Shown piece after piece: positions 10,915 to 49,005 of a stretch of 64,000 nucleotides of DNA; position 1 is the stretch's first letter; each line of letters begins with the position of its first letter. The position numbers were made by a program, and so were the translations under genes. The stretch is from positions 12,860-76,859 of the forward strand of contig CAWENP010000004.1 in assembly GCA_963810495.1 (NCBI GenBank). Direction: 5' to 3'. The DNA is from an uncultured delta proteobacterium. GTDB taxonomy: Bacteria; Desulfobacterota; Binatia; Binatales; Binataceae. The notes below the pieces were generated by a model that was not told where the DNA came from, searched no databases, and saw nothing but the letters and a program-made list of their open reading frames with translations.

Positions 10915-10934
10915 TCGGCAAAGGGCCGACGACG

Positions 10935-11297
10935 ATGAAATTACTGATTGCTAAAGCCGGAATGATTTCCGTACTGCTGTTGGCCGGGACCATCGGCGCG
11001 CGCGCGGCGGATTCAGGAGCGCCTGCAGCGACCATTAGCGTGCAGAAACCGGCTGATCCCCCCAAAGCGGCGAACCAGTATGGCGCCACGCCTGAACAGC
11101 AAAAGCAGCATCTTGAGCTATTCCGCGAGGGGCAGGCGTTGTGGCCGATTTATTGTAATCACTGTCACAACGCTCGAAATCCGGCCGAGTTTGCTCCTTA
11201 TCAGTGGGACCAGATCATGATGCACATGCGCACGTTGGAGAACCTGCCGCCTCATGATCAAGATGCCATCCTGGAATATATGAAGACCGCGCGTTGA
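10935..11297 (+). CDS. Small secreted mono-haem c-type cytochrome
   Basis: Own ATG and signal peptide (MKLLIAKAGMISVLLLAGTIGARAAD) and a single CNHCH haem-binding motif. In the track it is fused in-frame to the porin ORF only because no stop intervenes. Confidence 0.6.
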   Translation: MKLLIAKAGMISVLLLAGTIGARAADSGAPAATISVQKPADPPKAANQYGATPEQQKQHLELFREGQALWPIYCNHCHNARNPAEFAPYQWDQIMMHMRTLENLPPHDQDAILEYMKTAR

Positions 11298-16307: not shown

Positions 16308-16580
16308 GACCCGCTCTGGACCCAGCGTGCATCGTTAACCATCGCGCTTTCGCAGTCTGGGGCTACGACTCAGTAAGGCGAAGTCCTAACTACCGCGACT
16401 CTCTCAAATCAAGACACGCTGAGACCGCATAGTTGCGCCGAATGAGCTGCGCAACTTCGCAGCCGTGCGTACAGGTCAGCGAAAAACGTGGTATGAAAAG
16501 CGAACCATTTGGCCGCCCGCCTGGGTTTGCAATGCGAACGCCCTGGCGGTTCCGTCCGGGGACATTCGGGAGCGCTAGCG

Positions 16581-25434: not shown

Positions 25435-25733
25435 CGTGACCCACGACCGCGGTGCCGCTGGGTTGCGCCGCGCTGCTGGCGGCTTGTCGCGTGGTGACTT
25501 CCAGTGAAGTCCGCCAATTTATCGCATCAATGGCCGGTTGACATCGCAGTCGATTCCGGAGTAGACCGGCTTACTGAGTTGATTTCATGCGCTTTTGTGC
25601 GCATTGCGAGCAGGAGTTCCGGGGGGAAGGATTGAACGGCTAACTAACTAGAAGTGAACGGCTGATTAAACTTCATCGCAGTGCTCGCATCCCGTAGGCT
25701 GCGGAGCACGATGAGGCGGGACTCTCCAAGGCT

Positions 25734-29167: not shown

Positions 29168-29254
29168 GCGCGAATAGGTTTGGGTCTTGGGGAAGAAGGA
29201 GTGTTGATGATCCGCAAAATGTCTGGTTAGCAACCAACTCTTGGGGAGGCCTCT

Positions 29255-31141
29255 ATGGGGACTATGGGGACCGAATTTGGTTCGCGGACATGGTGGCAGA
29301 CTGCGCTCAGATTGGCGGCCGCGTTTGCCTTGGTGATGGCGGTGCTCAGTATCTGCGCTGCATCTTCGCGGGCGCAGGACTCGTCGGCTAAGGCGCCGAC
29401 GCAGATTAATGGCGGGCCGCCGATGGCAGATGTCCTGGCCCAGACGAACCCTCCGAGCCAGCCCGAAAGGAGCATCTGGAAGGATTTCCATCTCTCGGGA
29501 TTTCTCAATGAGACCGACGGGATGTGGATTAACCCATCCAATCTCAAGCAGTACACGCCGAGTCGCAATAGTCTGGCCACGGCGCGCACCTGGCTGCAGG
29601 CGGACGAGAACTTCCACCTTGGCGCAAATAACGACTTCTTCATGCGCGAATGGTTCGTGTACGAGCCGCCGTATGCATTTGACAGCTCCAACGACAGGTT
29701 CAGTGCGGCCGGCAGTCCGGGCATGGGGACAATGAACGACTTCTACAATCAGTACACCGTGCGCGACGCATGGTGGAAGCTGACGGCCGGGCCGCTGACG
29801 CTGTATACGGGCAATCAAATCGTGGTGTGGGGTCAGTCGCTGGCCTTCCGCGTGGGCGACGTTATCAACCCGGTAGACACCAACTGGAACTTCGGCTTTG
29901 CCAACCTGGAGCAGTCACGCATCCCGCAATGGATGCTCCATCCGATTCTTAACCTTCCTGACTTGGGTCCGCTGACTTCGAATTTCGTGGAAGGGGTGCT
30001 GATCCCCGGGGCGCAACCAATTTGGAACAGCTGCAATCATCCTGACGGCCGCTACTACCCATCCGGCGACGACGGCTCAGAGTGTAATACGGCGGGCCGG
30101 GTGAACAATGGCTTCCCGGGCGCCAACCACGCGCCGAGCGCCCGCTTCGACGCGCACTACACCAACTTCGCCAGTCCGGGGCGAGAACTCTCTACCAACG
30201 GGTTCCCGTATCCGGAGAATCCCAATGGCGGGAACATACTCGGTTGGCCGCTGCCGCGCGTCTTCTACTTCTGTTCACAGCTCCAAGGCCTATTCGCAGC
30301 GACCCATCAAAAGAACCCCGTAGCGGCCAACCGACAGAGGTTGTGTAACCTGACGGGTGGCCCGGTCATCATCGGCCAGTGGCACGTACCGGCGGTGCAG
30401 TGGAAGAACATGGAAGAGGGCCTGCGCTTTCACACGCTGATCGGCGGCAACGAGATCACGGCGCTCTACTTCAACAGCTTCCAATACTACCCGATCATTA
30501 CGTGGTCGCCTTTCAGCAATCAGTTCCCCGCGGTCTTCGAACCGGTGCAGTACGGGGGTGTGACGATAGACCGGCCGATTCCGGTGCCGCCGAGCCTGGG
30601 CGAGTACCTTCCGCTTGTGGCCCGCGCCGAAGCGGTTTATCAGAACCACGCGCCATTTGGCACCTGGAGCACCAGCGGGACCAACCCGGTCAAGTACTCA
30701 GATATCATGACGTGGATGGTGGCCTTCGACCTCGACAACGCTTACTCGCCGTGGCTTACCACGACCGGTAACCTGTTCGCCAATCTCGAGTTCCTCGACC
30801 AGATAAACATGGACACCAGCAACGACATGATTGATGGGCCGAACGGCGCGCTGGTCAACGAGGCCGTGCAAAAGAACGACATCAGTATGTTGTTGAATAT
30901 CTCGACGTCGTACTGGTGGAACGCGGTCGTGCCGACCTGGACGATGATCTACTCGCTCAAGGGGACGTCTTTCGCGTTCTTCCCTTCCATCCAGTTTAAC
31001 CCGCCGTGGACCAACAAGTACTTTGCCAGAATCGGCCTCATCTACGTGATGGGCTCGGATATGAACTACGTCGGCGTGCCGTTGTTCAAGGGTCAGAACA
31101 TGCTCAATATCACCGCCCAGTACAACTTCAGCGCCTTGTAG
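29255..31141 (+). CDS. DUF1302-family outer-membrane protein
   Basis: Signal peptide, about 600 aa of aromatic-rich beta-strand character, and the family-typical LYTGNQIVVWGQSLAFRVGDVINPVD segment recalled from memory. GGGGAGG Shine-Dalgarno. Confidence 0.7.
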   Translation: MGTMGTEFGSRTWWQTALRLAAAFALVMAVLSICAASSRAQDSSAKAPTQINGGPPMADVLAQTNPPSQPERSIWKDFHLSGFLNETDGMWINPSNLKQYTPSRNSLATARTWLQADENFHLGANNDFFMREWFVYEPPYAFDSSNDRFSAAGSPGMGTMNDFYNQYTVRDAWWKLTAGPLTLYTGNQIVVWGQSLAFRVGDVINPVDTNWNFGFANLEQSRIPQWMLHPILNLPDLGPLTSNFVEGVLIPGAQPIWNSCNHPDGRYYPSGDDGSECNTAGRVNNGFPGANHAPSARFDAHYTNFASPGRELSTNGFPYPENPNGGNILGWPLPRVFYFCSQLQGLFAATHQKNPVAANRQRLCNLTGGPVIIGQWHVPAVQWKNMEEGLRFHTLIGGNEITALYFNSFQYYPIITWSPFSNQFPAVFEPVQYGGVTIDRPIPVPPSLGEYLPLVARAEAVYQNHAPFGTWSTSGTNPVKYSDIMTWMVAFDLDNAYSPWLTTTGNLFANLEFLDQINMDTSNDMIDGPNGALVNEAVQKNDISMLLNISTSYWWNAVVPTWTMIYSLKGTSFAFFPSIQFNPPWTNKYFARIGLIYVMGSDMNYVGVPLFKGQNMLNITAQYNFSAL

Positions 31142-31313
31142 GAGGGAACAAAACCTGAGGTTCGGACGGTTAACAGGGTTGGAGCATCGTTTGAGTGCTC
31201 AATTCGTAAAGGTTATGCTCCTGATAGTGTCCGAGTCCTGACGCTTCAGGTCTTGGGGGACCAGATGCGGTTAATGGCTGGATATTTTGGCCGAACAATC
31301 GGGGACCGGCGAG

Positions 31314-31355
31314 CGCCGGGCGCGCCGCGTTTGCGGCGCGCCCGGCGTTTGTGTT
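31314..31355 (+). terminator. Rho-independent terminator or attenuator between the DUF1302 and DUF1329 genes
   Basis: Perfect 15-bp stem CGCCGGGCGCGCCGC / GCGGCGCGCCCGGCG with a 4-nt loop, followed by TTTGTGTT...TTTTT. Confidence 0.7.
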
Positions 31356-31406
31356 AGTGGCGTTTTTAGGTTCCCGCAAAGCATTACGGTAAGGAGGGAA
31401 AGAAGC

Positions 31407-32726
31407 ATGAGCGCGGCACGTAAGCTGCTAATCGGACTGCTGGGCCTGCTCTTGTGTCCCCTGGCGTTGGGTGCCGCACAGGCGGCGGAGGACACTATCC
31501 CGCCCGGCACCAAGATCACTATGCAGAACTGGCAGCAGTACAAGGCCTTCATGCCCGACGGCATGGTAGCGCTGTTTTCCGGCCAGTATGCGTGGAAGAT
31601 GCCGGACGATGTCGAGATGGATGTGGGTCCCACCACGATCCATCCGTTGCCGAAGCCATTCTGGGATGCGGTGGAAAAATATTCCGCGCAGACGCGCCTG
31701 GTGAAGCTGCCCAACGGCGCGTACAACATCGAGAACTACGTCGCCGGTGTGCCGTTCCCGCATCCCGAAGGTGCCGACAAGGGCACCGAAATCGCGGACG
31801 ACGTGACGTTCCGCCCCGGTGGTGTCCTCTACACCGGTTTCCCTGACCTGCAGGGCAACGAGGAATCATCCTTCTGCACGGTGGACCGCTTCGGCAGCAA
31901 GGCCTGCACGCGGGTCGACTACGACTACCGTCAGCTCGCCTACATCTGGTTCCCCGGCCTCCCGCACCTGGATCCTCATGCCGCCGGAGCATGGTATGGC
32001 GAATGGCTGATGGTGGAAGTGCCCGAGGAGTCCAAGTACACGGCCGACCTGACCCTCTTCTGGCAGGACGTGACGCGCAATCCTGACGACTTCGTCTTCA
32101 TCCCCGCGCTACGCCGTTCGCTGCGGCTTTCGACCTCGGCGCGCTGCGCGCCGCTGTTTGGCAGCGACATGACGCACGACGACCAGCGGGTGGGATGGAA
32201 CGGCGGGGCCTCGGTGTTCGAGGGCACCTATTTGCGCGACCAGAAAATCCTGGCCCTGGTCGACATGACTCACGAGGACGGCAAGTTCCCCGATAACTAC
32301 GACATGCCTCTGGGATGGGCGCGGCCGTCGTGGGGTCAATGGGAGGTCGTCCCGGTGTGGGTAACCGATGTCGAGCGGATTCCCTCGATGCGGCCCGGCT
32401 ACTGCTACGGCAAGCGCATCATGTACACCACGCAGGCGTACTATGCCAATGTCCATCTCGACCTGTACGACGCTAATTCGAAGCTCTGGAAAGTCGTCAA
32501 TATCGGGCTTAGCCCGGCCGTCGACAGATTACACCCCGAGTGGGGCAAGCAGTATTTCGGTGGAATCATCGAGCAGTACTGGGATCTCCAGAATCAGCAC
32601 GCGAGTCACGTGTTTACCGCCGATCGCGAGGGTAATGATCTCACGCCCGACATCGGCTTTGGCACGACCTACGACAACGTCTCGAGATACCAGAGTCCCA
32701 GTGGTCTGATGCAGTTGATGCGTTAA
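31407..32726 (+). CDS. DUF1329-family periplasmic protein
   Basis: AAGGAGGG Shine-Dalgarno, then ATG at 31407. Signal peptide, then ITMQNWQQYKAFMPDGMVALFSGQY ... NYVAGVPFPHPEG, matching the DUF1329 pattern I recall. The track ORF starts upstream at a TTG. Confidence 0.7.
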   Translation: MSAARKLLIGLLGLLLCPLALGAAQAAEDTIPPGTKITMQNWQQYKAFMPDGMVALFSGQYAWKMPDDVEMDVGPTTIHPLPKPFWDAVEKYSAQTRLVKLPNGAYNIENYVAGVPFPHPEGADKGTEIADDVTFRPGGVLYTGFPDLQGNEESSFCTVDRFGSKACTRVDYDYRQLAYIWFPGLPHLDPHAAGAWYGEWLMVEVPEESKYTADLTLFWQDVTRNPDDFVFIPALRRSLRLSTSARCAPLFGSDMTHDDQRVGWNGGASVFEGTYLRDQKILALVDMTHEDGKFPDNYDMPLGWARPSWGQWEVVPVWVTDVERIPSMRPGYCYGKRIMYTTQAYYANVHLDLYDANSKLWKVVNIGLSPAVDRLHPEWGKQYFGGIIEQYWDLQNQHASHVFTADREGNDLTPDIGFGTTYDNVSRYQSPSGLMQLMR

Positions 32727-32919: not shown

Positions 32920-34228
32920 ATGATTCATTTCTCGGGCCGCGTTCGGGTCCTGCTGCTGTTCGGTGCGGCGACCTGCGCGTTAGCGGCGCTCGCGATGGCC
33001 GAGTCGACGCCGTCTCCATACCAATTGATCGACGCCCACTTTGCGATGACCGTTACCTTGCTCGCCAATGGCGAGGTGCTGATCGTGGGTGGCGGCGACA
33101 ATCATGTCTTCGGCGACCAATCTCGCGGAAATTTACAATCCCGCGACCGATGCCTTCACGCCGGCGGGCAGCGGCCTGATGCCCATCGAGCGCACATATC
33201 ATACGGCGACCCTGCTCAAGGACGGCCGGGTGCTGATCGCGGGCGGGATGAATCGCATGGGCAAGGCGCTCGACAGCGCAATCCTATTCGATCCCGAAAG
33301 CGGCAAGTTCATCCCAACTGGCAGCATGGCCGAGCCGCGTTACGCCGCCGCCGCCACGCTGCTGCCTGACGGTCGCATCCTCATCAGCGGCGGCGCCTCG
33401 ACCTCGGAGGGCTACGCGGGCGCCAACCAGGAGAAGCAAGAGGAACAATCGCTTGACACTGCAGAACTCTACGACCCCGGGACCGGCAAGTTCTCGCCCG
33501 CAGGCAAGATCGAGCGCGTCTACGACCTCACCAGCAACAAAATCATGATGCGTGCGAGCATGACCACGGCGCGCCGCGAGCATAGCGCGACCCTGATCAC
33601 GGCCGGCCCGCTAAGCGGGCGGGTGCTGATTGCGGGCGGGATCGGCGACAAGAACAAGCCGATCGCAAGCGCCGAGTTGTACGACCCGGCAACCAACACC
33701 TTCAAGGCCACCGGCGACATGACGGTCGCGCGCACCTATCAGGGCGCCACCGCGCTGCGTGACGGGCGGGTGTTTATCGCCGGCGGCACCGACGCCAGCG
33801 ATCAGGCTCTCGCCACCGCCGAACTCTATGATCCCGCCATCGGCAAGTTTGCGCTCACTCCGGACCCCATGCAGCACGCGCGCTACCGCCAGGTCGCAGT
33901 CCTGCTCCCTGACGGCGACGTGTTGCTGGCGGGAGGAGCGAGCAACGCGGGCGTGCTGGCAAACGCCGAGATTTTCGATCCGCGGACCGGCAAGTTTCGG
34001 CCCACGGGACTGATGAAGGACTACCGGATGGCGGCGGGCGCAGTGCTGCTGCATAACGGCACTGTCTTTATCGCGGGCGGGTACAACAATCGCCCGACGT
34101 ACGCGCCAGGCGCACTCAGCATGGGTTCGACGTCGGTATCGTTCAGGGTGCTCAACACGGCCGAAATCTATAACCCGATGAACGGACAGTTCGTCGACAC
34201 GCGCTCGCTCGGACACGGCCCCGGCTAG
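32920..34228 (+). CDS. Secreted Kelch-repeat beta-propeller protein (galactose-oxidase-like fold) with an apparent frameshift near 33100
   Basis: Signal peptide and the first blade (LLANGEVLIVGGGD) are in frame 1. Six further blades (LLKDGRVLIAGG, LLPDGRILISGG, LRDGRVFIAGG, LLPDGDVLLAGG, LLHNGTVFIAGG) are in frame 2, beginning at SSATNLAEIYNPATDAF. Confidence 0.65.
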
Positions 34229-35438: not shown

Positions 35439-35608
35439 CTACTGCTGATCGCGCGCCCACTCTTCGACCGCCTCGAGGCTAAACCGCCAGTCGCTACCAA
35501 TACGGAAACCCGGCAATTTTCGTTGTCTCAACAGCCGATAAATCGTGGTCTTGTGAATGTGCAGAAATTCCGACAATTCTGCCACGGTTAAGTATTTGCC
35601 TTGCGTCA
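35439..35608 (-). CDS. Small HTH_17 (excisionase/MerR-like, BldC-like) DNA-binding protein, copy 1
   Basis: My own translation: MTQGKYLTVAELSEFLHIHKTTIYRLLRQRKLPGFRIGSDWRFSLEAVEEWARDQQ (56 aa). Not in the ORF track. Confidence 0.6.
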
Positions 35609-35690: not shown

Positions 35691-35894
35691 TCAAGTATCG
35701 GCCCCTATCTGATCGAGCTGCCACTGTTTAATCGATTCAAGACTAAACCGCCAGTCGCTGCCAATCCGAAAGCCTGGCAGTTTTCCCTGCTTGAGCATCC
35801 GATAAATCGTAGTCTTATGAACCTGCAGATATTCCGACAATTCGTCGACGGTTAGATATTTGATTTGCATCATGCGAATCACTTCACCGTTCAC
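35691..35894 (-). CDS. Small HTH_17 (excisionase/MerR-like, BldC-like) DNA-binding protein, copy 2
   Basis: MQIKYLTVDELSEYLQVHKTTIYRMLKQGKLPGFRIGSDWRFSLESIKQWQLDQ; about 70% identical to copy 1. Confidence 0.65.
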   Translation of the reverse strand: MNGEVIRMMQIKYLTVDELSEYLQVHKTTIYRMLKQGKLPGFRIGSDWRFSLESIKQWQLDQIGADT

Positions 35895-36328
35895 AGATTT
35901 CCCGATTCGCCACGCGCCAGAGAGTAAGATCGGGGACCATACTTGGCCAAATACGCACGCAAAGATTCAAGGCCGGAATCCCGAGCTGCAATTCTCCAAC
36001 CTTCGGGCGACGCTTGCTGCACTTGCCAATGCCCCGCTGCGAGCCGGATGACGATACGCGCGCCGTTTCCGAGCGAGGCGCTGGCGCGCCCTCCAAAGCG
36101 ATCCAGGGCGATACCGAAGTCCGCCAGCAGCTGTTCCCAATAGACCCAGGTCATTCGGTTACGCGGACTCGCGACAGGGTGGATATCCTCCTTCCCGATG
36201 GAGTATCGCTCCATCAGAGTTTGGACCAGGTGAGCGGCACTATTGGCCTCAAACTCGGAGGCTCCATTTTCGGGAATAACTCGCCGCAAGAGCCGAATTT
36301 TTCTCAGCGCGTCTTCAACTCTCATCAT
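35891..36328 (-). CDS. DUF2786-like protein (phage/plasmid-associated family)
   Basis: N-terminal pattern ALRKIRLLRRVIPENGASEFEANSAAHLVQTLMERYSI fits the K-I-x-K-L-L-A-L-A...E-A...A-Q-x-L-M signature I recall for DUF2786. Confidence 0.4.
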   Translation of the reverse strand: MMRVEDALRKIRLLRRVIPENGASEFEANSAAHLVQTLMERYSIGKEDIHPVASPRNRMTWVYWEQLLADFGIALDRFGGRASASLGNGARIVIRLAAGHWQVQQASPEGWRIAARDSGLESLRAYLAKYGPRSYSLARGESGNL

Positions 36329-36377: not shown

Positions 36378-37586
36378 CTATTGCGACAGGCGCAGAAGGA
36401 TCTCCGAAGCGATGGTCTGAAAGACGCCCTGCAAATCGGCGGCGGTGGGCGCGAAGACCGCCTGTCCCACCGGTTCGTTGGGGTTGAACGTGGAGCTGGC
36501 AGGATCATTGGCGATTTGCTGAAGAAACGCCTGACTTATCGTGTTGCCCAAGCCGATCGAGTAAATCACGATATTCTGCGAGCGCATGCTGTTGGCAACC
36601 TGAACCGCGCGATACATAGCGTCGTTGGAGATGTTGGCCATGCTCAACGTCTCCATTGTCCCGGTTTGCTGTGAAGGGAAACTTGTCGCACCACAACTGG
36701 CGCCGTTGCCGTTAGTCGGATCCATGAAAGAGAAATTGCTACACCAACCCAGGGCATTCTCGGGAGGGGAGCAGCCGCCAACGTTGAGCAAGGTGGACGG
36801 AGGGCAGTTCAGAGTGTCCTGAACGGTGTTGGCCCAGCCGTCGGTAAAGAAGACCGCCACTTGGACCACGTTCTCGCCCGCCGCCACAGGGATGCTGACA
36901 ATCTGAGCCTGTCCGTCCAGCAATCCGCCCTGCGAAAAGGTGGCCCCGCCGAACCGCATCGCGTTGACCGCATTGGTTATCGGAGTCAGGAAATTAGTCC
37001 CTATGGGTACATCGACACTCGCGACCGACGAGAAACTGACGTCCGCGATCTGATCGTTGGCATTGTCGAAGTAAGTCAGAAAATTGTCGACAGCGGGCGG
37101 CAGCGCCTGCGCTCCGCCATTGAGATTCATGGAGCCAGATCTGTCCAACACCAGCGACATGATGAGCTTGGGTCGCGTCGTCTGGGCGCTGGAACTAACC
37201 TGCAACGTTTGAAGCCCCGACAGCAGGCGGAGAAAGAAGGTGTTGATCGTGGCCGTGGCGTTGACGTTTACCACCGCGTTGTTGTTGGCGTCCGTAGTGA
37301 TGGCGACATTGAACGCCGGCGGGCTAAAATCTCGCCCACTCCCCGATCCATAGTTGGTATTGAACGCGCTCTGCGCGATCGCCGTGGCCTGGGCCTGCCC
37401 CTGGCTGATGTTGCGCATGGCCGCAAGCGCGGCGGCATCGACAGCCTTGGAGAGTTTCGCCCGCGTGACAAAGGCGAAGCCAAGGTCAACCCCAAGACCC
37501 ATGAACAGAATGAGAACGGGCAAGCTGAGTGCAAACAGCATGAAGACTTGGGCACGCTGGTGTCGTCTATTGTTAGTTAGCTGCAA
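36378..37586 (-). CDS. TadG-like Flp-pilus assembly protein with a von Willebrand factor A domain
   Basis: TadE/G-like N-terminus (FMLFALSLPVLILFMGLGVDLGFAFVTRAKLSKAVDAAALAA) and a vWA MIDAS motif (LVLDRSGSM). Confidence 0.75.
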   Translation of the reverse strand: MQLTNNRRHQRAQVFMLFALSLPVLILFMGLGVDLGFAFVTRAKLSKAVDAAALAAMRNISQGQAQATAIAQSAFNTNYGSGSGRDFSPPAFNVAITTDANNNAVVNVNATATINTFFLRLLSGLQTLQVSSSAQTTRPKLIMSLVLDRSGSMNLNGGAQALPPAVDNFLTYFDNANDQIADVSFSSVASVDVPIGTNFLTPITNAVNAMRFGGATFSQGGLLDGQAQIVSIPVAAGENVVQVAVFFTDGWANTVQDTLNCPPSTLLNVGGCSPPENALGWCSNFSFMDPTNGNGASCGATSFPSQQTGTMETLSMANISNDAMYRAVQVANSMRSQNIVIYSIGLGNTISQAFLQQIANDPASSTFNPNEPVGQAVFAPTAADLQGVFQTIASEILLRLSQ

Positions 37587-37607
37587 GAGAGTATCCTCCG
37601 CCGGATC

Positions 37608-38144
37608 TTAGAAATACGCCGCCTCGTACAATGTCGACGGCATGGCCAGCTTCAGCAGATTCTGAATCGGAGTTATTGGCTGGTATGAGTAGAATATCTC
37701 CGTTATGTAGATCGTCTGGCCGAGCTGTAGCATGGCGGCTGCCGACGATGGCACGCTCGCCGTGTTTCCCACTCCACTCCCCACCCTGCTATTTTGCGAA
37801 ACGCCCCCCTCCGAGAACTGGTTGGTAATTGTATAGACCTTGTTGATGTTGGTGACCGAGGTGATGATCACCTCTCCGTTGCTGCTCAAATTCAACGGCG
37901 AGTCCCCCGCAATCACGGCAGCGGCGGAGGCCGACAAAGTCGTCCCGCGCGATGCCAGGTTGGAACCTTGTCTGGATAGGCTGGTCATGACCTGCTCGTC
38001 GTGGATCGCGCGGCTGAAATCGACCAACATGCAGAAGAGGACGAGCATCAGGGCCGCGATGAGAGCAAACTCCACCGCCGCCTGGCCGGATTCGGCCGCT
38101 GAGATCTTTCTGCCTACTGAACCGGGATGCCATGTGTGTCTCAT
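37608..38144 (-). CDS. TadE-like pseudopilin
   Basis: SGQAAVEFALIAALMLVLFCMLVDFSRA is the classic TadE N-terminal motif. Confidence 0.7.
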   Translation of the reverse strand: MRHTWHPGSVGRKISAAESGQAAVEFALIAALMLVLFCMLVDFSRAIHDEQVMTSLSRQGSNLASRGTTLSASAAAVIAGDSPLNLSSNGEVIITSVTNINKVYTITNQFSEGGVSQNSRVGSGVGNTASVPSSAAAMLQLGQTIYITEIFYSYQPITPIQNLLKLAMPSTLYEAAYF

Positions 38145-38158
38145 GCCGCTACTCCCAA

Positions 38159-38640
38159 CTAGTTCGTCTCGCTGGCAGGAAAAGGCTCGTTTTTGAAACT
38201 GACGCTCGACGTGAAAGTGTACGTTCCATTCGGAAAACCACGTGCAACCATTGGCGTCATCAGCTTGAGGTTACTGGTGACCGAGACCGTTACGGTGTCT
38301 CCCGGTCCGCCCGCGCTGCCGCTGCCGCCCAGCAAGCTCGAAATCTGAATGTTCGTTACCTGCTGGCCAAAGGCCGCCTGTTGAAGTGTCGCGATGATCG
38401 AATTCACGCGTGAGAGAGACTGCCCGGGGTTTTTGGGATCCGGGAGATGATTCCCCGTGGACGCGAACCGGCCGGCCTCCTGCACCGCGTTCTCAACTTC
38501 CATTTGCACGAGGAACAGGTGCCCGAAATCGAACACCGCGAAGATCAGAAAGAAGAACAACGGCGCGACCAGGAGAAATTCGACCATCGCCTGACCCCTG
38601 ATTGATCGAGGCATGCGAGCTCGAAGTGCCAAGCGCAGCT
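38159..38640 (-). CDS. TadE-like pseudopilin (second copy)
   Basis: RGQAMVEFLLVAPLFFFLIFAVFDFGHLF. The track ORF extends upstream to 38770. The internal Met at 38640 fits the family's N-terminus. Confidence 0.6.
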
Positions 38641-38989
38641 TGCCTGCTCTGCGGGATCTCAGATCATTCCCGCCTTGACGGAAGAAAGTCGCGGAGCTGC
38701 AGCTCTTAGCGCTTACTACAGTCATCTTGCCGCTCCCTCCGGTCTTTAAAGATAAGAAATAAGCTAACATAAATACTTTAAAGATGTTAAGACAAAGATG
38801 AACTCTTTATTTCATGCAGAGTGTCAGAATTTGACGTAATTCAACCTCGTTGGGGTCGCCAACGTGAAAACGGAATGTTTGACGTTCCTGGGTCGGCTAG
38901 AGCGTAAGAGATCTCTGGAGTCTCACACTTCCAGCCATGAAGGCTAAACTACTCAGAGCGTCCAGCAGAGAGACTGATTTTTCGCAGTT

Positions 38990-42730: not shown

Positions 42731-42832
42731 CGGTTGATAGCCCCCGGCGAGGCGATGCTCAGCGCCAGAGTCGATCGGCCGCTTCACAAGACGGTAGCCC
42801 GTCCGCACTGCTGGTTCCGACGAAATCAAGCA
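42731..42832 (+). repeat. Direct repeat of about 100 bp, copy 1 (about 85% identical to 44963-45062)
   Basis: GCGGTTGA...CGAGGCGATGCTCAGCGCCAGAGTCGAT...CAAGACGGTAGCCCGTCCGCACTGCTGGTTCCGACGAAAT versus the second copy, read directly. Confidence 0.6.
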
Positions 42833-42874
42833 AAACCAACACTTCTCGAGTGTTGATCAAAAATCCGCCCTTCA

Positions 42875-43010
42875 TAGTGCATTAAAGGTAGAGAGAGTTA
42901 AAAAAGACTTAATTTTTCTTGGTTGATACATCGCGCACAGATAGGCTAAGTGTGTATCTGGTGTTCATTTTCTATCGTTACTGATCCTAGTGGTCGTTCA
43001 CGGTCGTTCG
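42875..43010 (+). repeat. Left copy of an inverted repeat pair of about 140 bp (AT-rich, promoter-like) bracketing a 4.6-kb segment
   Basis: ATAGTGCATTAAAGGTAGAGAGAGTTAAAAAAGACTTAATTTTTCTTGGTTGATACATCGCGCACAGATAGGCTAAGTGTGTATCTGGTGTTCATTTTCTATCGTTACTGATCCTAGTG. It aligns at about 85% with the reverse complement of 47540-47673. Confidence 0.7.
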
Positions 43011-43036
43011 ACATAGAAAAGGGAAAGGCAGACGCG

Positions 43037-43285
43037 ATGGCGCGCGTGGCGGCTCGACTTGAGCAGTTCCTGACCATCAAGGATGTGGCGGATCTACTGA
43101 GCGTTCATCCGATGACCGTCTACAGACTGCTCAAGCAGGGACGTTTGCCGGGTGTTCGCCTCGGCGGTGTCTGGCGGTTTAGCCGTCAAGCGATGGAAAG
43201 ATGGGAAAGCGACCAGGAAAGACGTACTTTGGGAACCTTTTCCAACTACCGTAATTATCCCCGTAGCGATCGATCCGCGAAATAA
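43037..43285 (+). CDS. HTH_17 (excisionase/MerR-like, BldC-like) DNA-binding protein
   Basis: LTIKDVADLLSVHPMTVYRLLKQGRLPGVRLGGVWRFSRQAMERWE. ATG at 43037 after a GGGAAAGG Shine-Dalgarno. Confidence 0.65.
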   Translation: MARVAARLEQFLTIKDVADLLSVHPMTVYRLLKQGRLPGVRLGGVWRFSRQAMERWESDQERRTLGTFSNYRNYPRSDRSAK

Positions 43286-43605
43286 ACGGGGCCAATATGT
43301 TGGAGAAAAACGGACCCATGCTCAGGTTGTTCTATACCGTGGCCGATGCAGAAGCGCTTAAGGAATCGCTTGCAGACTGCATCTGTTCTCTATGCAAACG
43401 GAAGTACCGTAATCATCGCGACGCCGATCATCTTTTCTTCGACCTACATCGAAGATCTGATCCCGAAGACGCAAACTAAGCCGTAGCTCAAACGGCGGAG
43501 AACCATACCAGCCGCCAGGAGTGGGCCTATCTCCGAGGCGCGCCGGTCGTGCTTTCAGAACTACCCCACGATCGGGGAGAAAAGGTTCAGACGGAGGCAT
43601 CGAGA

Positions 43606-44055
43606 ATGACGCAGCCCAAATGGAAAGTGGCGCTCTTCAAACGGAAATCGGAAATCCAGCCCAAGGAGCTCATTCAATTTATATGGAATTTGCCTGCCAC
43701 AGAGTTCATTGAGCCGCCAGCGCTCAGTTCCGCTCCGGCCGAGGGTAACAATGCGTCGCCAGGCCAAGCCGCCCGGGCTCCCAGCGAGGAGCGCAACTAT
43801 CTGGCCAAGGGGTCCAGGGTGAGCGCCAAGCTCAGCTTCCAGGGGCCGGCCCGGATCGACGGCGAGTTCGAAGGTGAAATCATCGCCACGGACAATGTGA
43901 TTCTCGGCGACAATGCGGTGGTTACCGCCGAAATCAAGGCGGCGTCGATCATCGTGGCCGGCAGGTTTTCTGGTGACATGACCGTCAGCGACCGCATTGA
44001 GATTCGTCCTTCTGCCAGGGTCTCGGGCAAGCTAACACTAAGGACAGCAGGATGA
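43606..44055 (+). CDS. Bactofilin-domain protein (free cytoplasmic paralogue)
   Basis: The beta-helical repeat pattern ARIDGEFEGEIIATDNVILGDNAVVTAEIKAASIIVAGRFSGDMTVSDRIEIRPSARVSGKL fits the bactofilin (DUF583) consensus. GGAGG Shine-Dalgarno 8 nt before the ATG at 43606. Confidence 0.7.
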   Translation: MTQPKWKVALFKRKSEIQPKELIQFIWNLPATEFIEPPALSSAPAEGNNASPGQAARAPSEERNYLAKGSRVSAKLSFQGPARIDGEFEGEIIATDNVILGDNAVVTAEIKAASIIVAGRFSGDMTVSDRIEIRPSARVSGKLTLRTAG

Positions 44056-44942
44056 CCGAGTCGACGCGCAGGCAGGCTCCGGTTCCGATACAGCAGCGGC
44101 AAGAGCCCTGTGCACAGTTGACCGAGATGCTCGCGGCGTACGGGCTTTCTTCGGACATGGCCGCGGAAATCGAAGCTCACCTGATCCCCGTCACATTTGA
44201 AAAGGGAGCGGTCGTGTTCCTGCGTGGAACTTCGGCTGACCTCCTCTTTTGCGTTCTCAAAGGGTTCGTCAAGCTCTATTTGCCTCTCGGCGACAACAAC
44301 AGGACGCTCGTCGATCTTGCGCGCCCAGGTGATCTCATAGGATTCGTCGATGAGATGGATTCCAGAGGTCGTCGGCAGGTGCTCGAGGCGCAAGCTTTAA
44401 CGAGATGCTCGATAGGGCTGCTGAGTCGTGAGCTTTTGGCACAACTGCTACGCAAAATCGATCATGAAACAGTGGTTCGGTTACTCGAGCACTTCAACAC
44501 CGCCTGGTCGACGCTCTTCGCGCGGTACGTCGCCTTCATAGGTTCTTCGTTCCGTGAGCGGCTCGAACAGGTGTTTTACAGCCTAGGCGAGCGATTCGGC
44601 TCCCGCGATAAGCGGGGTACTCTACTGGTACCAGAGCTAAGCCACGAAGACCTGGCAGAAATGATCGGGAGCTCTCGACCTATGGTCAGCAAGCTGATCG
44701 TCGATATGAGCAACGAGGGTTTGCTTGAACGCGGCGAGAAGCGCCGTTTCATTCTTCGGCCGAAGGCGCACAGGTCTACGTCTATTCTTCCTGACGGCCT
44801 TCAAACCCGCATCGCGCCCAATGCTAGTTCTAAACAGGTCGCTGGGGTTTTCGCACCTTTGTCCTCCGCGATTCGCGCGCGCACATACGTGCCAGGGCGG
44901 TCTACCGGGCCGCGAAACAATTCCTACCGATCGCCCGTCTAG
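44052..44942 (+). CDS. Crp/Fnr-family transcriptional regulator (paralogue 2) with a C-terminal extension of about 60 aa
   Basis: About 55% identical to Crp-1 (EDLAEMIGSSRPMVSKLIVDMSNEGLL). Start overlaps the bactofilin stop (ATGA). Confidence 0.85.
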   Translation: MTESTRRQAPVPIQQRQEPCAQLTEMLAAYGLSSDMAAEIEAHLIPVTFEKGAVVFLRGTSADLLFCVLKGFVKLYLPLGDNNRTLVDLARPGDLIGFVDEMDSRGRRQVLEAQALTRCSIGLLSRELLAQLLRKIDHETVVRLLEHFNTAWSTLFARYVAFIGSSFRERLEQVFYSLGERFGSRDKRGTLLVPELSHEDLAEMIGSSRPMVSKLIVDMSNEGLLERGEKRRFILRPKAHRSTSILPDGLQTRIAPNASSKQVAGVFAPLSSAIRARTYVPGRSTGPRNNSYRSPV

Positions 44943-44962
44943 CCGAGCCAGGCTCTCCGGCG

Positions 44963-45062
44963 AGCGGTTGAGGATCCCTCGCGAGGCGATGCTCAGCGCT
45001 AGAGTCGATACGGGCGCTACTCAAGACGGTAGCCCGTGCGCACTGTTGGTTCGACGATTTAA
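44963..45062 (+). repeat. Direct repeat of about 100 bp, copy 2 (immediately 3' of Crp-2)
   Basis: See copy 1. Confidence 0.6.
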
Positions 45063-45186
45063 TTGCCGGCCGAGTAGCCCTCGATGGCGGCGATTGCCGG
45101 TCCACCGCGCAAGGGGTGACCGAGGGGAATGGCGAGATCACCGATGCGCCAGACGTATCGCCCGAAGGTAGCGCGCGGGTCGCACA

Positions 45187-47457
45187 CTAGCGCATGATCT
45201 GCATCAGCCCGCCTGGCATCGAGTACTGCGTGACGTTGTCAAATTCGCGGGAAACTTCAGCGTTGAACATGATCAGGCGGCCACTCGGGTCTGTGCTGTT
45301 TCCCAACGTTGCGTGCTGATTTTGCAGGTCCCAGGTAGAAGCGGCAAATCGTCCGTAAATCGTTTCACCATCGGTTCCCGGAACTTGTCGCGGAAAGTAG
45401 GCGCTCAATGTGACTTTCCAAAGGTTGCGGTTAGAGTCATATAGGTCCTCCCACAAGCTTCGGGCGGTCTCCTCGTCGATATATTCAATTCGCTTGGCGT
45501 AACAATAGCCGGCAGCCTCAGATGGAATACGGTGAATATTGATCACCCAGACGTTTCTGAGGCTCCACCTTCCCCAGGAAGGCCGCGCGAACCCCAGCGG
45601 CATATCATACTGACGCGGAAAATCAGACACCGCCTCGCTGAGGTTGACGAGGGCCAGCACTTTCATGTTTCGTAGGTAATCGGCATCAAAATTCGCCAGG
45701 CCCCCGTTGAACCCCGGTTTCTGATCGTCGTGCGTCCAATCGGTACCAAGCAAAGGTGCGCAGCGGGCGCTTACCGAAACAGCTACGGAACGCCTGAGCG
45801 CTGGAAGAAATATAAAATTTAACTCATTCTGCTGAGCGTTCTGCGGAAGGATGTCGAGATCGGTCGTATACTTGGCCTGCTCAGGTTCTTCGGTCATTAG
45901 CCACTGTGTGTAAAAGGCGCCGTCGGCACGCGGGTCCGTCCTCGGCACTCCCAGGTCGGTATTGAAAGCGAGCTGTCTGTAGACAAAGGCCCATTTGGCC
46001 GTGGTCGCGTTGCCAAACCGGTCCAACATTGTCACGTTCCAAAGCCCTCCACCGGGCATGCCCACTGCCAGGTGCGGGCTATATGTGTACCACAAGTCGG
46101 CGAGAATTTCGTATCCCTTGTCCGGTCCTTGAGGAACGGGAAACGGCTCGCCCGCGACATAGTTCGCGATGTCGTTGCGTCCATTGGGCAGATGAACTAC
46201 TCGAACGTCCCCGCTGTACTTCTCACTTGCCTCCCTGAAACTCCGCGGTGCCACGATATGGATCGGCGGGCCGACGTCCATCTCGATATCATTTGGCATC
46301 CTGAGGCCGTACTTGCCCGAGAACAGGGCGATCATACCGTCGGGCATGAAAGCCCTGTATTGCTCCCAGTTTGAAATAGTAATTCTTGTACCCGCCCGGA
46401 CGGTGCCCTCCGTCCCTTGTGAGTTACTGTCGATATCCGACTGCTTGACGAGAGGAGAAGGCAGCTCTGCGTTAGCTATTCGCGGCACCTTGGGTTCGAC
46501 TGGAAGCGGGGACGCGTGGGTCCAATGGCCAGCAGCCGAGGCAATCGCCTCTACGTGTGTTAAGGGAAAGACTGATCGCCCGCTCCCCGGTGCGACGCTC
46601 CCGTCCTTTCGCGCACTCCGGACGGTATAGTCAGGTGCGACTGGAGCGGGAACACGATGTGGGATCTCGATCATGAGGTTCGAAGGCGAAACCGGTGCGT
46701 TGGGTGCAGCAACAGATGATGCACTAGTCGTCGCGCTAGTAGGGCCGTACGTGGCTCCATTTAAGGCGGCGAATGCGCCGGCCGTCGGCACCTTAACAGC
46801 AAAGGTCGAGAGGGCCTCACTTGGTGCGCGCGACGCAGGCGCTGTGGATTCGGGTGCGATGGGCCGTACGGTGGCTCGGCTAGTTTCGCGGTGCGCAAAA
46901 TGAGCTCCACTCAGAGGCGACAGCTCCCGAGTGGCATGGGCAGGTTCCGCTTTCGTACCAAGCGTGGCTACTCTGACCGATTCGTCTGCAATATTGCCGC
47001 GCCAGTCGTGCAGATAAGCGATTAAAAGGGTTCCGCCTAACGCCGCAAGAGCCGCGCCGGGTACGGCGACCCGCCACATACGTGCTCGTTTGGGAGAGAC
47101 GGTGAATTCAGGGTCCTGCGTTCCTTGTCTTACCTCTTGAGGGTCCTGCGCTGCTTGTCCTACCACTTGGGGCGCGATCAAATTGCCAAACACCTTGGCA
47201 GATGGGTAAATCTCGATGCGTTCGCTGCCAGTTATGTCGCCCCTGACTGTTCCCGACACAATGATTGAGACTGCCTTTATGTCACCAGTTATCATGGCGC
47301 TCTCGCCGATGACGACGCTGTCATTGGCGGCAATCGTGCCATCGAAGTGACCATCGATTCGGACCTTGCCGCTCGCTGTGGAGCCCTCCGGCAAGTGCCA
47401 TTCCGGCGTTGAAATCTGCTCAAGCCGCATACTCGGTCGCTTTTTGAACAGCGCCAT
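45187..47457 (-). CDS. Fusion protein: N-terminal bactofilin domain, single TM helix, Ala/Pro/Ser-rich linker, C-terminal DUF1329 domain
   Basis: Residues about 25-110 (VRIDGHFDGTIAANDSVVIGESAMITGDIKAVSIIVSGTVRGDITGSERIEIYPSAKVFGNL) are paralogous to the protein at 43606-44055. The TM helix is VAVPGAALAALGGTLLIAYL. The C-terminal 440 aa are about 50% identical to the protein at 31407-32726 (ISNWEQYRAFMPDGMIALFSGKY...NYVAGEPFPVPQG...MPGGLMQIMR). Confidence 0.8.
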   Translation of the reverse strand: MALFKKRPSMRLEQISTPEWHLPEGSTASGKVRIDGHFDGTIAANDSVVIGESAMITGDIKAVSIIVSGTVRGDITGSERIEIYPSAKVFGNLIAPQVVGQAAQDPQEVRQGTQDPEFTVSPKRARMWRVAVPGAALAALGGTLLIAYLHDWRGNIADESVRVATLGTKAEPAHATRELSPLSGAHFAHRETSRATVRPIAPESTAPASRAPSEALSTFAVKVPTAGAFAALNGATYGPTSATTSASSVAAPNAPVSPSNLMIEIPHRVPAPVAPDYTVRSARKDGSVAPGSGRSVFPLTHVEAIASAAGHWTHASPLPVEPKVPRIANAELPSPLVKQSDIDSNSQGTEGTVRAGTRITISNWEQYRAFMPDGMIALFSGKYGLRMPNDIEMDVGPPIHIVAPRSFREASEKYSGDVRVVHLPNGRNDIANYVAGEPFPVPQGPDKGYEILADLWYTYSPHLAVGMPGGGLWNVTMLDRFGNATTAKWAFVYRQLAFNTDLGVPRTDPRADGAFYTQWLMTEEPEQAKYTTDLDILPQNAQQNELNFIFLPALRRSVAVSVSARCAPLLGTDWTHDDQKPGFNGGLANFDADYLRNMKVLALVNLSEAVSDFPRQYDMPLGFARPSWGRWSLRNVWVINIHRIPSEAAGYCYAKRIEYIDEETARSLWEDLYDSNRNLWKVTLSAYFPRQVPGTDGETIYGRFAASTWDLQNQHATLGNSTDPSGRLIMFNAEVSREFDNVTQYSMPGGLMQIMR

Positions 47458-47539
47458 CTCGATGCCTCCCGTCAGAAACCTAGCCAGGTTCGCGAATAAA
47501 ACATCAAACGGCGATGCGGCCCAAAAAAGATTCTCGGAA

Positions 47540-47673
47540 CTGACCGCGCACGATCACTAGGATCAATAACGATAGAGAATGAACAGCAGACATACATCTA
47601 GCCTCTCTGTGCGCGATGTATCAATTCAAAGGGACCAGATCGTTTTTAACTATCTTTATCTTTGATGCACTAT
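47540..47673 (-). repeat. Right copy of the inverted repeat pair
   Basis: Reverse complement is ATAGTGCATCAAAGATAAAGATAGTTAAAAACGATCTGGTCCCTTTGAATTGATACATCGCGCACAGAGAGGCTAGATGTATGTCTGCTGTTCATTCTCTATCGTTATTGATCCTAGTG. Confidence 0.7.
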
Positions 47674-47748
47674 ATTGTGCGAATGTTCATACGGAACCCG
47701 CCGAAATCCTGATACGCTCGGCCTCGGAGGAGCGCCGAAAGAATCTAG

Positions 47749-49005
47749 ATGGCCCTGACCGGCAATAGAATCAACTCCGCCTCCGTAACAGGCGAAGATA
47801 TCGACTCGGCTCGCGCGTGGCTGACCGTCGCAGCGGGATTCCTCGCCTGCTTCACCTTGTTCGGCGTGGCGTATAGCTTTGGCGCGTTCTTCAAGCCGAT
47901 GGCGCAGGAGTTCGGCGCCACTCGCGAGGCCACCTCGGCGATCTTCTCGATCACCGCCGCGCTCTACTTCGCACTCAGCCCGCTCACCGGATACCTGTCC
48001 GACCGTTTTGGGCCGCGGCCCGTGGTCGGGGCGGGCGCGCTCGCGACGGGCGGCGGAGTCATCCTCACGGCATTCATCCCGCGCCTGTGGTTCGCGTACT
48101 TCACCTACAGCCTGGGCGTCGGCATCGGCGTCTCGTGCTGCTACGTGCCGTTGGTCGCGATGATCGCGGGATGGTTCGATCGGCGGCGCAACACGGCGCT
48201 GGGCCTCGCCGTCGCGGGCATCGGGGCCGGCACTCTCACGATACCGCCGCTCTCGGGCGAGCTCATCGTGCATCTGGGATGGCGCCGCGCGTACGTGATC
48301 CTGGGCGTTGCGGCAGCCGCGCTGCTGATGCTATGTGCGGCGCTATCGAAACGGCCGCCGGCAGGAGCGCAGCACGTCGCGCGTCCGCGCTTCGGAGAAT
48401 TCATCCGCGAGCGCAACTTCATCGTGCTCTACGTCTCGTCGGCGCTGGCCAACGTCGCAACCGCGATTCCATTCGTCTTTCTCCCGGTTTACGCGCGCGA
48501 GCACGGCATCAGCGAAGTCGCCGCGGCCGCGCTGATAAGTTTCATCGGGCTGACCAGCATGCTCGGCCGCGTCGGTTTGGGCACGCTCGCCGACCGCGTC
48601 GGGCTCATCCGGCTCTACCAGGCTGCGGTGCTCGCGCTCGGGCTCTCGTACTTCATCTGGCTCGCAGCGCATGGCTATCCGATGATGGTGCTGTTCGCGC
48701 TCGCGATGGGTGCGAGTTACGGCGGCTACGTCGCGCTCAATCCGTCGGTGGTGGCGGAGTTGTTCGGCGTGGCCGGGATGGGCGTGGTGCTGGGGACGCT
48801 CTACACCAGTATCGCAGCGACCGCCCTCTTCGGCCCGCCGATGGTCGGCGCGATCATCGACCGCACCGGAAGCTATCAACTGGGGATTCTTTTCACTATC
48901 GCGACGACGCTCGCGGGATTCCTGGTGCTGCTCGCGCTCAAGCCGCGAAAGGTTCCGGCCGACGAAAATGAAGGGAGCGCGGCGCTGGCGCATTCCGAAA
49001 TCTAG
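47749..49005 (+). CDS. MFS transporter (oxalate/formate-antiporter or monocarboxylate-type)
   Basis: 418 aa with 12 TM helices and the MFS motif GYLSDRFGPRPVV between TM2 and TM3. Confidence 0.85.
   Translation: MALTGNRINSASVTGEDIDSARAWLTVAAGFLACFTLFGVAYSFGAFFKPMAQEFGATREATSAIFSITAALYFALSPLTGYLSDRFGPRPVVGAGALATGGGVILTAFIPRLWFAYFTYSLGVGIGVSCCYVPLVAMIAGWFDRRRNTALGLAVAGIGAGTLTIPPLSGELIVHLGWRRAYVILGVAAAALLMLCAALSKRPPAGAQHVARPRFGEFIRERNFIVLYVSSALANVATAIPFVFLPVYAREHGISEVAAAALISFIGLTSMLGRVGLGTLADRVGLIRLYQAAVLALGLSYFIWLAAHGYPMMVLFALAMGASYGGYVALNPSVVAELFGVAGMGVVLGTLYTSIAATALFGPPMVGAIIDRTGSYQLGILFTIATTLAGFLVLLALKPRKVPADENEGSAALAHSEI

Follow-up and report, generated by a model that had tools for sequence, protein, structure and literature searches.

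The 64,000-nucleotide stretch of DNA analysed here (hereafter the window; contig CAWENP010000004.1, positions 12,860 to 76,859) carries a gene that joins a bactofilin domain, a predicted transmembrane (TM) helix and a DUF1329 domain in a single 756-residue protein (Table 1). An earlier reading of the letters alone (the sequence-only reading) had singled out this gene as an unusual fusion. The coordinates it gave are exact; it stated no strand, and the gene lies on the minus one. We found one uninterrupted frame of 756 codons with zero internal stops, so that no stop codon or frameshift separates the two halves. This intact frame, which has its own ribosome-binding site (RBS), together with matches to both Pfam families (PF04519 and PF07044) far above their gathering thresholds, bears out the claim that all three parts are encoded in one gene. 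The protein is identical to P0001, an NCBI entry ('DUF1329 domain-containing protein [Candidatus Binataceae bacterium]') from a Candidatus Binataceae metagenome-assembled genome (MAG) of the phylum Binatota. An NCBIfam scan of the protein gave zero matches, and a promoter and terminator scan of positions 42800-47900 returned no more sites than were found in shuffled sequence.

Table 1. Positions in the window of the fusion gene, of its parts and of neighbouring genes
Feature	Position	Strand	Remarks
Fusion gene, whole	45187-47457, stop codon included	minus	756-aa bitopic protein: bactofilin head, TM helix, spacer, DUF1329
Shine-Dalgarno sequence GGGAGG	47465-47470	minus	Read from the sequence; ends 7 nt 5' of the ATG
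N-terminal peptide MALFKKRP (aa 1-8)	47434-47457	minus	Resembles the bactofilin membrane-targeting sequence; putative membrane targeting
Shortened bactofilin beta-helix (aa 27-100, ~4 windings)	47158-47379	minus	Pfam PF04519, AlphaFold and Foldseek
Single TM helix (aa ~128-150), WRVAVPGAALAALGGTLLIAYLH	47008-47076	minus	Sole strongly hydrophobic segment
Periplasmic spacer, ~195 aa (aa 151-346)	46420-47007	minus	Ala/Pro/Ser/Thr-rich, length-variable
Periplasmic DUF1329, LolA/LolB-like (aa 347-756)	45190-46419	minus	Pfam PF07044
Free bactofilin gene, 149 aa	43606-44055	plus	Pfam Bactofilin, E 6e-20; C-terminally shortened paralogue of the fusion head
HTH_17 small DNA-binding protein	42950-43285	plus	Pfam HTH_17, E 8.5e-16; upstream of the free bactofilin gene
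Crp/Fnr regulator, 296 aa	44052-44942	plus	Pfam cNMP_binding and HTH_Crp_2; convergent with the fusion gene
MFS transporter	47749-49005	plus	Divergent, upstream of the fusion gene; well supported
RND/MMPL, BNR (Ycf48-like), RND/MMPL and DUF1302 genes	22993-31141	plus	Pfam; transporter module
DUF1302 gene	29255-31141	plus	Sole DUF1302 gene in the window; 14 kb from the fusion gene, with its own DUF1329 partner
Secreted DUF1329 paralogue	31407-32726	plus	Pfam DUF1329, E 6.3e-21; Sec signal peptide; 12 kb from the fusion gene

The N-terminal part of the protein (the head) matches bactofilin models, as had been claimed. Pfam Bactofilin aligned to residues 27-98 with an E-value of 5.6e-18 (65.4 bits, cutoff 27.9), over profile positions 14-85 of 98 only, and phmmer additionally retrieved two bactofilins of known structure, 6ria (E 8e-5) and 2n3d (E 2e-4). 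A head-only AlphaFold model, built from an alignment of 123 bactofilin sequences, reached a pLDDT of 94-97 over residues 31-100 and contained 10 strands of at least three residues, arranged in about four windings (residues 28-100). The best match of the head among solved structures, as found by Foldseek, was the Thermus thermophilus bactofilin TtBac (6ria, the crystal structure of its F105R mutant), with a root-mean-square deviation (rmsd) of 1.3 Å over 77 columns, a target TM-score of 0.78 and a probability of 1.00.

However, the head is not the 'canonical' bactofilin for which the sequence-only reading had taken it. A complete domain, with about six windings and both terminal polymerisation interfaces, is not present: the alignment with TtBac stops at residue 97, short of F105, and where the bactofilin consensus ends in '…GN..aP.L.I.EGAvFEG.C.M', the fusion has a hydrophilic stretch instead after 'GNLIAPQVV'. 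Of 121 related bactofilins, 86 have the C-terminal 'EGAxFxG' winding, written as the pattern [ED]G[AGSTV]x[FLIVMY]xG, whereas neither the fusion nor the neighbouring free bactofilin does. Exchange of the Phe of this winding in BacA (F130R) abolishes polymerisation (PMC12448750). Since the head is shortened at both ends and the winding with the polymerisation Phe is gone, polymer formation by the head is not to be assumed. The first residues of the fusion, MALFKKRP, agree with the start ('MalF.k') of the consensus of 123 related bactofilins and resemble the published consensus of the bactofilin membrane-targeting sequence (MTS), MFSKKKK (PMC12448750); membrane binding by this peptide would be redundant with the TM helix. 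The head shares with the canonical bactofilins of PF04519 (Caulobacter crescentus BacA and BacB, TtBac) the right-handed beta-helix, a hydrophobic and lysine-containing N-terminus (MALFKK) that resembles the MTS and, by prediction, a cytoplasmic, membrane-proximal location. Canonical bactofilins differ in being small and soluble, with six windings rather than about four and with short disordered tails, whereas in the fusion a TM helix and a 600-residue extracytoplasmic part follow the bactofilin domain. In two other fusions, P0002 and P0004 (L002/L010, 8001-8483), the last one or two windings are tandemly duplicated, the unit 'AGTVRGDITGSERIEI…GNLTAPQV' being present twice; the bactofilin head can thus change in length during evolution.

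A Kyte-Doolittle scan with 19-residue windows gave a single segment above 1.5 (residues 129-150, maximum 1.79), in line with the one hydrophobic helix of the sequence-only reading. The full-length AlphaFold model, based on a 15-sequence family alignment, was poor (mean pLDDT 28) and was used for the TM helix only, which it placed at residues 138-150; what is said of the head rests on the head-only model. The helix is preceded by the K/R-containing stretch SPKRARMWR and followed by a net acidic one, and the N-terminus of the protein is hydrophilic and has no signal peptide. One helix with K/R on its N-terminal side, an acidic far side and a hydrophilic N-terminus predict an N-in/C-out topology, which would put the head on the cytoplasmic side of the membrane and DUF1329 on the periplasmic side, as had been proposed. 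The predicted extracytoplasmic location of DUF1329 also draws on two cysteines (C566 and C652) that are invariant in this part among the aligned homologues. The Ala/Pro/Ser/Thr-rich linker, previously put at about 180 residues, spans about 195, and these four residues make up 49% of positions 151-345. No secondary structure was predicted for this spacer in the full-length model, and it has undergone large insertions and deletions between homologues; its length is enough to span the periplasm to the outer membrane. TM helices are known from about 3.2% of bactofilins, in which they precede the bactofilin domain (PMC12448750). In such proteins, for instance CcmA of Proteus mirabilis, the domain is likewise covalently anchored in the cytoplasmic membrane, but the helix precedes it and the survey mentions no periplasmic domain (PMC12448750), whereas the TM helix of the fusion follows the bactofilin domain.

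The C-terminal domain is a full-length DUF1329: PF07044 aligned to residues 359-735 over positions 2-356 of its 368-position profile, at 81.2 bits (cutoff 23.1) and an E-value of 1.2e-22. It is 48% identical over 416 residues (E 8e-133) to the secreted DUF1329 protein of the window, whose listed reading frame spans 31287-32726; this is close to the 50% stated before. This paralogue has the signal peptide MSAARKLLIGLLGLLLCPLALGAAQA, followed by AED, and its mature N-terminus aligns to about residue 349 of the fusion, so that head, TM helix and spacer stand exactly in the place of the signal peptide. Like the secreted DUF1329 proteins of Pseudomonas putida (PP_0765-0766) and Shewanella (Sama_1588-1591), the fusion thus has a full DUF1329 in its C-terminal 410 residues. 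Those proteins have a Sec signal peptide, whereas the corresponding domain of the fusion, in which this peptide is replaced, is tethered to the inner membrane.

We found 39 relatives of the fusion. Eight clusters at 90% identity have a bactofilin head and the same bactofilin-TM-spacer-DUF1329 plan; across aligned positions they share 64-84% identity with the window protein, and they stem from independent NCBI, JGI, ENA and Logan assemblies, with contigs of up to 75 kb. The others comprise six clusters with a Cys/His head, three to four short-headed and about ten secreted ones, the rest being fragments. Secreted forms with a signal peptide (P0023, P0026-P0034) are 63-76% identical to the DUF1329 of the fusion. 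Among 185,579 species-representative genomes the subfamily was present at three loci only, all in soil MAGs labelled 'uncultured delta proteobacterium', namely a fusion on a 1.29-Mb contig (L010), a protein with a Cys/His head (L011) and a nearly headless one (L012). This recurrence bears on the possibility that a frameshift or a chimeric assembly had merged two separate genes, or that the head is a beta-helix other than a bactofilin, which we consider extremely improbable. The data are indeed metagenome-assembled, and P0040, P0042, P0043 and P0045 look like fragments or frameshifted copies, but the frame is uninterrupted and has its own RBS, both Pfam matches are far above threshold, the closest structural counterpart of the head is a bactofilin of known structure (1.3 Å rmsd), and the same fusion was assembled independently in many samples by several pipelines, on contigs of 62 kb, 75 kb and 1.29 Mb (the last in MAG L010). 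As the fusion recurs in eight clusters from several metagenomes, an artefact is essentially excluded.

A HMMER search with residues 1-155 against 1.84 billion representative proteins gave 5,828 bactofilin-domain matches, and among the best 150 of the 5,828 only the representative of the fusion family aligned across both the bactofilin domain and the TM helix. The few other long fusions inspected among the matches listed are apparently cytosolic, with no TM helix evident by eye; as judged from sequence, P0087 has a substrate-binding-protein-like C-terminus and P0133, P0114, P0140 and P0152 have a carboxypeptidase-regulatory-like one. A word-index search with residues 1-170 yielded, besides a few free bactofilins, nothing but fragmentary or frameshifted members of the family. 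Among the relatives found here, the bactofilin-TM-DUF1329 fusion is seen only in Binataceae. In the literature searched, no protein with a bactofilin domain, a TM helix and a periplasmic domain is described; the combination of a bactofilin domain and DUF1329 therefore stands, as the sequence-only reading had held, in an architecture of which we found no description.

Pairwise comparisons with three fusions gave dN/dS values of 0.13-0.14 for DUF1329, of 0.59-0.83 for the spacer and of 0.24, 0.45 and 0.75 for the beta-helix core, the latter being rough as they rest on 74 codons only. The dS values of the head (0.14-0.22) were below those of DUF1329 (0.37-0.50), as would be expected from a mosaic history.

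In sisters of the fusion, a closely related periplasmic domain stands behind another head. Six clusters (P0013, P0014, P0015, P0017, P0019 and P0021) have the motif C-x24-H-x3-C-x2-C, which we take, by comparison with RsrA, to be the spacing of zinc-binding anti-sigma (ZAS) domains. Matches of these heads to Pfam zf-HC2 were weak (E 0.006-0.1); a profile of them matched the Mycobacterium tuberculosis anti-sigma factor RslA (3hug_B) with an E-value of 0.001, and a profile search with the ZAS heads returned only five short relatives. The periplasmic domains of the six clusters are 73-89% identical to that of the fusion, and those of P0013 and P0014, at 88-89%, are nearer to it than that of the bactofilin-headed P0009 (80%). 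The window fusion itself has no H-x3-C-x2-C motif, no zf-HC2 match and no anti-sigma domain. Shorter heads occur as well: P0025 has an MTS-like tail only (MTLFKRQR…) and P0024 a short unrelated tail. In P0008 (L012, 7878-9950) what looks like the first helix of a ZAS head is joined to what looks like the last strand of a bactofilin head in a 60-residue cytoplasmic part, which is followed by a bactofilin-type juxtamembrane sequence; the protein appears to be a recombination or deletion chimera of the two heads. The L012 copy has an apparent frameshift near its 3' end. The family is thus characterised by a conserved, strongly constrained periplasmic DUF1329 that is tethered to the inner membrane via a TM helix and a long variable spacer, and by exchangeable cytoplasmic heads.

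This variety could also mean that all that matters is the retention of DUF1329 at the inner membrane by TM helix and spacer, in place of secretion, the head being a passenger that was acquired by recombination and is slowly decaying. The different heads on a conserved periplasmic domain (bactofilin, ZAS, MTS-like tail, short unrelated peptides) would fit such a plain tether, as would the resemblance of P0008/L012 to a deletion chimera of both head types, the trimming of the bactofilin at both ends in the window allele and its internal duplication in P0002 and P0004, the higher dN/dS of the head relative to DUF1329, and the decay of one family member at L015 (see below). We nevertheless regard this explanation as unlikely: the beta-helix core is 80-89% identical among the fusions, with a dN/dS of 0.24-0.45 in two of the three comparisons, it is modelled at a pLDDT of 94-97, and MALFKK is kept in most bactofilin-headed sequences. 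Moreover, free bactofilin genes recur beside differently headed members, which a passive anchor would not predict.

In the window, the free bactofilin gene lies 1.1 kb from the fusion gene in convergent orientation, and over the beta-helix its product shares 51% identity with the fusion head. The gene probably starts at the ATG at 43606 (MTQPKWKVALFKRK…), which is preceded by a GGAGG site and agrees with the orthologue start MTQPKWK; given these, the mechanically assigned start at 43549 probably lies too far upstream. The protein ends with '…GKLTLRTAG' before the stop codon, without an EGAxFxG winding. The 5' regions of both genes align at the DNA level through the RBS motif 'GGAGGCATCGAGA', and a 22-nt deletion in that of the fusion has removed the MTQPKWK codons and created the fusion ATG. 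On account of this DNA-level homology, we conclude that the head is a captured copy of a free bactofilin gene, including the RBS. At loci L003-L007 the fusion is 78% identical to that of the window, and in L003, L004 and L006 it again has a free bactofilin orthologue and an HTH_17 gene of 80% identity as its neighbours. The HTH_17 orthologue is placed between free bactofilin and fusion in L003-L006. At L008, a full-length free bactofilin gene (Pfam E 2e-28) starts 229 nt after a ZAS-headed gene. The same intact bactofilin gene is found at L015, which is syntenic with L008, behind a decayed ZAS-TM-DUF1329 gene (1553-2889) with a broken frame and a deletion of DUF1329 residues ~26-352. Since bactofilins are thus fused to the family, encoded beside the fused form and encoded beside the ZAS-headed form, their association with it is unlikely to be accidental.

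In several Proteobacteria, co-fitness links DUF1302 and DUF1329 with a BNR protein of the Ycf48-like type and an RND protein of COG1033, and this four-family module has been proposed to export an envelope component (bioRxiv 10.1101/072470). DUF1302/DUF1329 mutants of P. putida have a defect on fatty esters (10.1101/2020.07.04.188060). DUF1302 is a predicted 18-stranded outer-membrane barrel, and its complex with DUF1329 has been predicted with high confidence (ipTM 0.84; PMC13499233). A secreted relative that is 70% identical (P0026) is encoded within a DUF1329-BNR-MMPL-DUF1302 operon, which places the DUF1329 subfamily of the fusion in this known module. The sequence-only reading had considered the fusion a component of a DUF1302/DUF1329-type machine, but the gene neighbourhoods do not bear this out: the transporter module of the window (DUF1302/DUF1329/RND) is 12 kb away from the fusion gene, and none of the anchored homologues examined has a DUF1302 gene in the 8 kb around it. 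In contrast to secreted DUF1329 genes, those of the fusion family have no adjoining DUF1302, BNR or RND genes, except for an MMPL/RND gene that follows the ZAS-headed P0014 (L001). The window module is an expanded form of the known one, with three RND/MMPL-type (COG1033-like) paralogues on the plus strand (16509-18983, 22993-25434 and 26723-29167; 50-59% mutual identity) within 13 kb, the last two of which flank the BNR/Ycf48-like gene and precede the DUF1302 and DUF1329 genes. Just 3' of this module, a 379-residue Kelch-repeat beta-propeller protein is encoded (33089-34228, plus strand).

Csd5 and Csd7 of Helicobacter are bitopic bactofilin clients. In these, as in PbpC of Caulobacter and LmdC of Hyphomonas, a cytoplasmic bactofilin is joined via one TM helix to a periplasmic domain; the binding is non-covalent and the domains act on peptidoglycan, whereas the link in the fusion is covalent and its domain belongs to a family of lipid or hydrophobic-compound transport. 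Recruitment of such bitopic periplasmic enzymes proceeds via short cytoplasmic peptides, for example in PbpC and LmdC (PMC12448750; PMC10945521). The fusion might be a covalent version of the recruitment of PbpC, LmdC and Csd7, in which the head co-polymerises into a cytoplasmic bactofilin scaffold and fixes, from inside to outside, the envelope site of DUF1329 and of the DUF1302/RND assembly. This positional anchoring, or polymer-coupled assembly, is what the sequence-only reading had suggested, and it is consistent with the bactofilin fold and MTS-like N-terminus of the head, with the paralogous free bactofilin nearby (a pairing kept in L003, L004 and L006), with the positioning of bitopic periplasmic enzymes by known bactofilins through cytoplasmic tails (PMC12448750; PMC10945521) and with a spacer that could reach the outer membrane. 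However, the truncated head lacks the conserved C-terminal polymerisation interface, headless variants exist, the transporter genes are unlinked to the fusion at all loci examined, and a periplasmic domain of 88-89% identity on an anti-sigma-type head fits signalling better than positioning. We therefore hold anchoring to be a rather unlikely possibility. Because near-identical periplasmic domains are attached to a ZAS head in the sisters, a coupling or signalling from outside to inside, which uses the same parts with the arrow reversed, is at least as likely.

The fusion architecture is well supported, and the architecture, the fold of the head, the predicted topology of the protein, the conservation, the head swapping and the gene neighbourhoods are established here; from these we infer a mechanism. 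Tentatively, and short of calling it probable, we see the fusion as a member of a modular family of trans-envelope transducers or tethers in Binataceae, which couples a DUF1329 module to a cytoplasmic bactofilin. On its spacer of about 195 residues, DUF1329 would engage the outer-membrane DUF1302 barrel/RND machine or its hydrophobic cargo, as secreted DUF1329 proteins presumably do. The state of the module would be relayed through the membrane to the exchangeable head, which is a ZAS-like domain in the sisters and a shortened bactofilin here. This head could dock onto, cap or nucleate assemblies of the free bactofilin that is encoded next door. The output would then be an altered membrane-proximal bactofilin assembly together with whatever it holds, possibly the adjacent HTH_17 or Crp regulators. 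The contact with DUF1302, the co-assembly with the free bactofilin and the flow of information from outside to inside are all inferred steps.

The transducer would have parallels in the ZAS-headed sisters, which would act on a sigma factor, and in the FecR-type anti-sigma factors of cell-surface signalling. FecR-type systems have the same plan, with a sensor reaching towards an outer-membrane partner. Membrane-bound ZAS anti-sigma factors of the RslA/RsrA class also have a cytoplasmic effector head, one TM helix and an extracytoplasmic sensor; the fusion differs from this class, as from FecR and RskA, in having no anti-sigma domain and in that its putative sensor is DUF1329. A precedent for the output would be Bacillus subtilis BacR (YhbD), a regulator that is encoded just upstream of the bactofilins BacE and BacF and is held by them at the membrane (PMC13649987). 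There, as in the window with its order HTH_17, bactofilin and Crp, an HTH gene lies directly 5' of a bactofilin gene; the window regulator differs in matching HTH_17 and not DUF4004, and the membrane-anchored sensor has no counterpart in B. subtilis. A more specific version, which we put forward as speculative and unlikely in its full form, is that DUF1329 reports on a DUF1302/RND transporter of hydrophobic compounds and plugs into interchangeable anti-sigma or bactofilin outputs, the bactofilin head controlling or nucleating a cytoskeletal polymer by which transcription regulators are held.

Several observations weigh against the transducer reading. The C-terminal winding with the polymerisation Phe (F130 in BacA, F105 in TtBac) is missing from the fusion head, and six first-winding residues that most homologues have, among them P0002, P0004, P0006, P0007 and P0009, are deleted in the window allele as well; co-assembly of the head with the free bactofilin may therefore be impaired. 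The head is under weaker constraint than DUF1329, with a dN/dS of up to 0.75 over its 74 codons, and variants without a head exist (P0008/L012, P0024). A tblastn search with the window DUF1302 found none within 8 kb of the fusion or of the anchored homologues in L001-L012, and the Crp gene is not conserved beside the fusion. Finally, no gene for an extracytoplasmic function (ECF) sigma factor lies beside the ZAS-headed relatives in L001, L008 and L011, and no sigma-70 r2 or r4 domains were found among the neighbouring genes scanned in the window and at these three loci. As there is no ECF sigma gene alongside, the anti-sigma activity of the ZAS heads is only putative.

The current picture of bactofilins is one of small scaffolds in the cytoplasm to which membrane proteins bind non-covalently. 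A natural covalent fusion may serve as a 'Rosetta stone' that points to a new class of clients beyond cell-wall remodelling, namely accessories of outer-membrane transport of lipids or hydrophobic compounds. In Pseudomonas and Shewanella, both DUF1302 and DUF1329 show clear fitness phenotypes that as yet lack a mechanism, and the presence of the same DUF1329 on an anti-sigma-type head in the sisters suggests a trans-envelope sensor or docking unit. This swap of a bactofilin head with an anti-sigma-type head is in our view the most informative new fact, as it provides a testable hypothesis for research on both bactofilins and DUF1329. If the more specific version given above, with interchangeable anti-sigma and bactofilin outputs, is true, the fusion would be, as far as we know, the first transmembrane receptor with a bactofilin assembly as its direct output, and it would give the first functional handle on DUF1329. 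A shortened beta-helix without one of the polymerisation interfaces could moreover shed light on the capping or nucleation of bactofilin filaments at the membrane. Only an uncultured lineage has yielded this family, and the roles proposed beyond the architecture are hypotheses.

Other genes around the fusion were inspected as well. The stop codon of the free bactofilin gene overlaps the start codon of the Crp/Fnr gene (ATGA), which suggests that the two are translationally coupled. The Crp gene was rejected as a conserved partner of the fusion: it is absent beside the fusion in L003-L007, and the Crp link is therefore specific to the window. Directly upstream of the fusion gene, a 205-residue open reading frame (ORF) without a Pfam match (47656-48273, minus strand) lies almost entirely opposite the MFS transporter gene, which is well supported, and is for this reason probably no gene. 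A pseudopilin-like TadE/TadE/TadG-VWA trio (36378-38770, minus strand) is syntenic with the fusion in the window and in divergent genomes and follows it, at 74-85% identity to the window copies, in L003-L005 and L007, while L002 (17259-18148) has two TadE-like genes only. A functional tie between this trio and the fusion was dropped, as synteny alone offers no arguable connection.

Both head types have a C4 zinc-finger gene of the DksA/TraR type at a distance of 1-2 kb upstream, namely the bactofilin-headed genes in L002 (6011-6427) and L010 (6075-6419) and the ZAS-headed gene in L008 (6671-7051). Its copies at the bactofilin-headed and ZAS-headed loci are 36% identical, and it may be a conserved regulatory neighbour. 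A 666-residue ORF (9297-11297, plus strand) had no Pfam match at E <= 1e-4. Several small genes of the HTH_17 family (excisionase/MerR-like) are dispersed near the fusion and the Tad-like genes, both in the window (35442-35597 and 35709-35957 on the minus strand, 42950-43285 on the plus strand) and in L003 (6787-7062, 10545-10793 and 14217-14372), and could be a local regulator family or remnants of mobile elements. The window also contains an integrase-core (rve_3) transposase gene (12618-13655, plus strand), and L001 and L002 have IS110-family and DDE transposases close to their family members, as would fit a neighbourhood prone to recombination.

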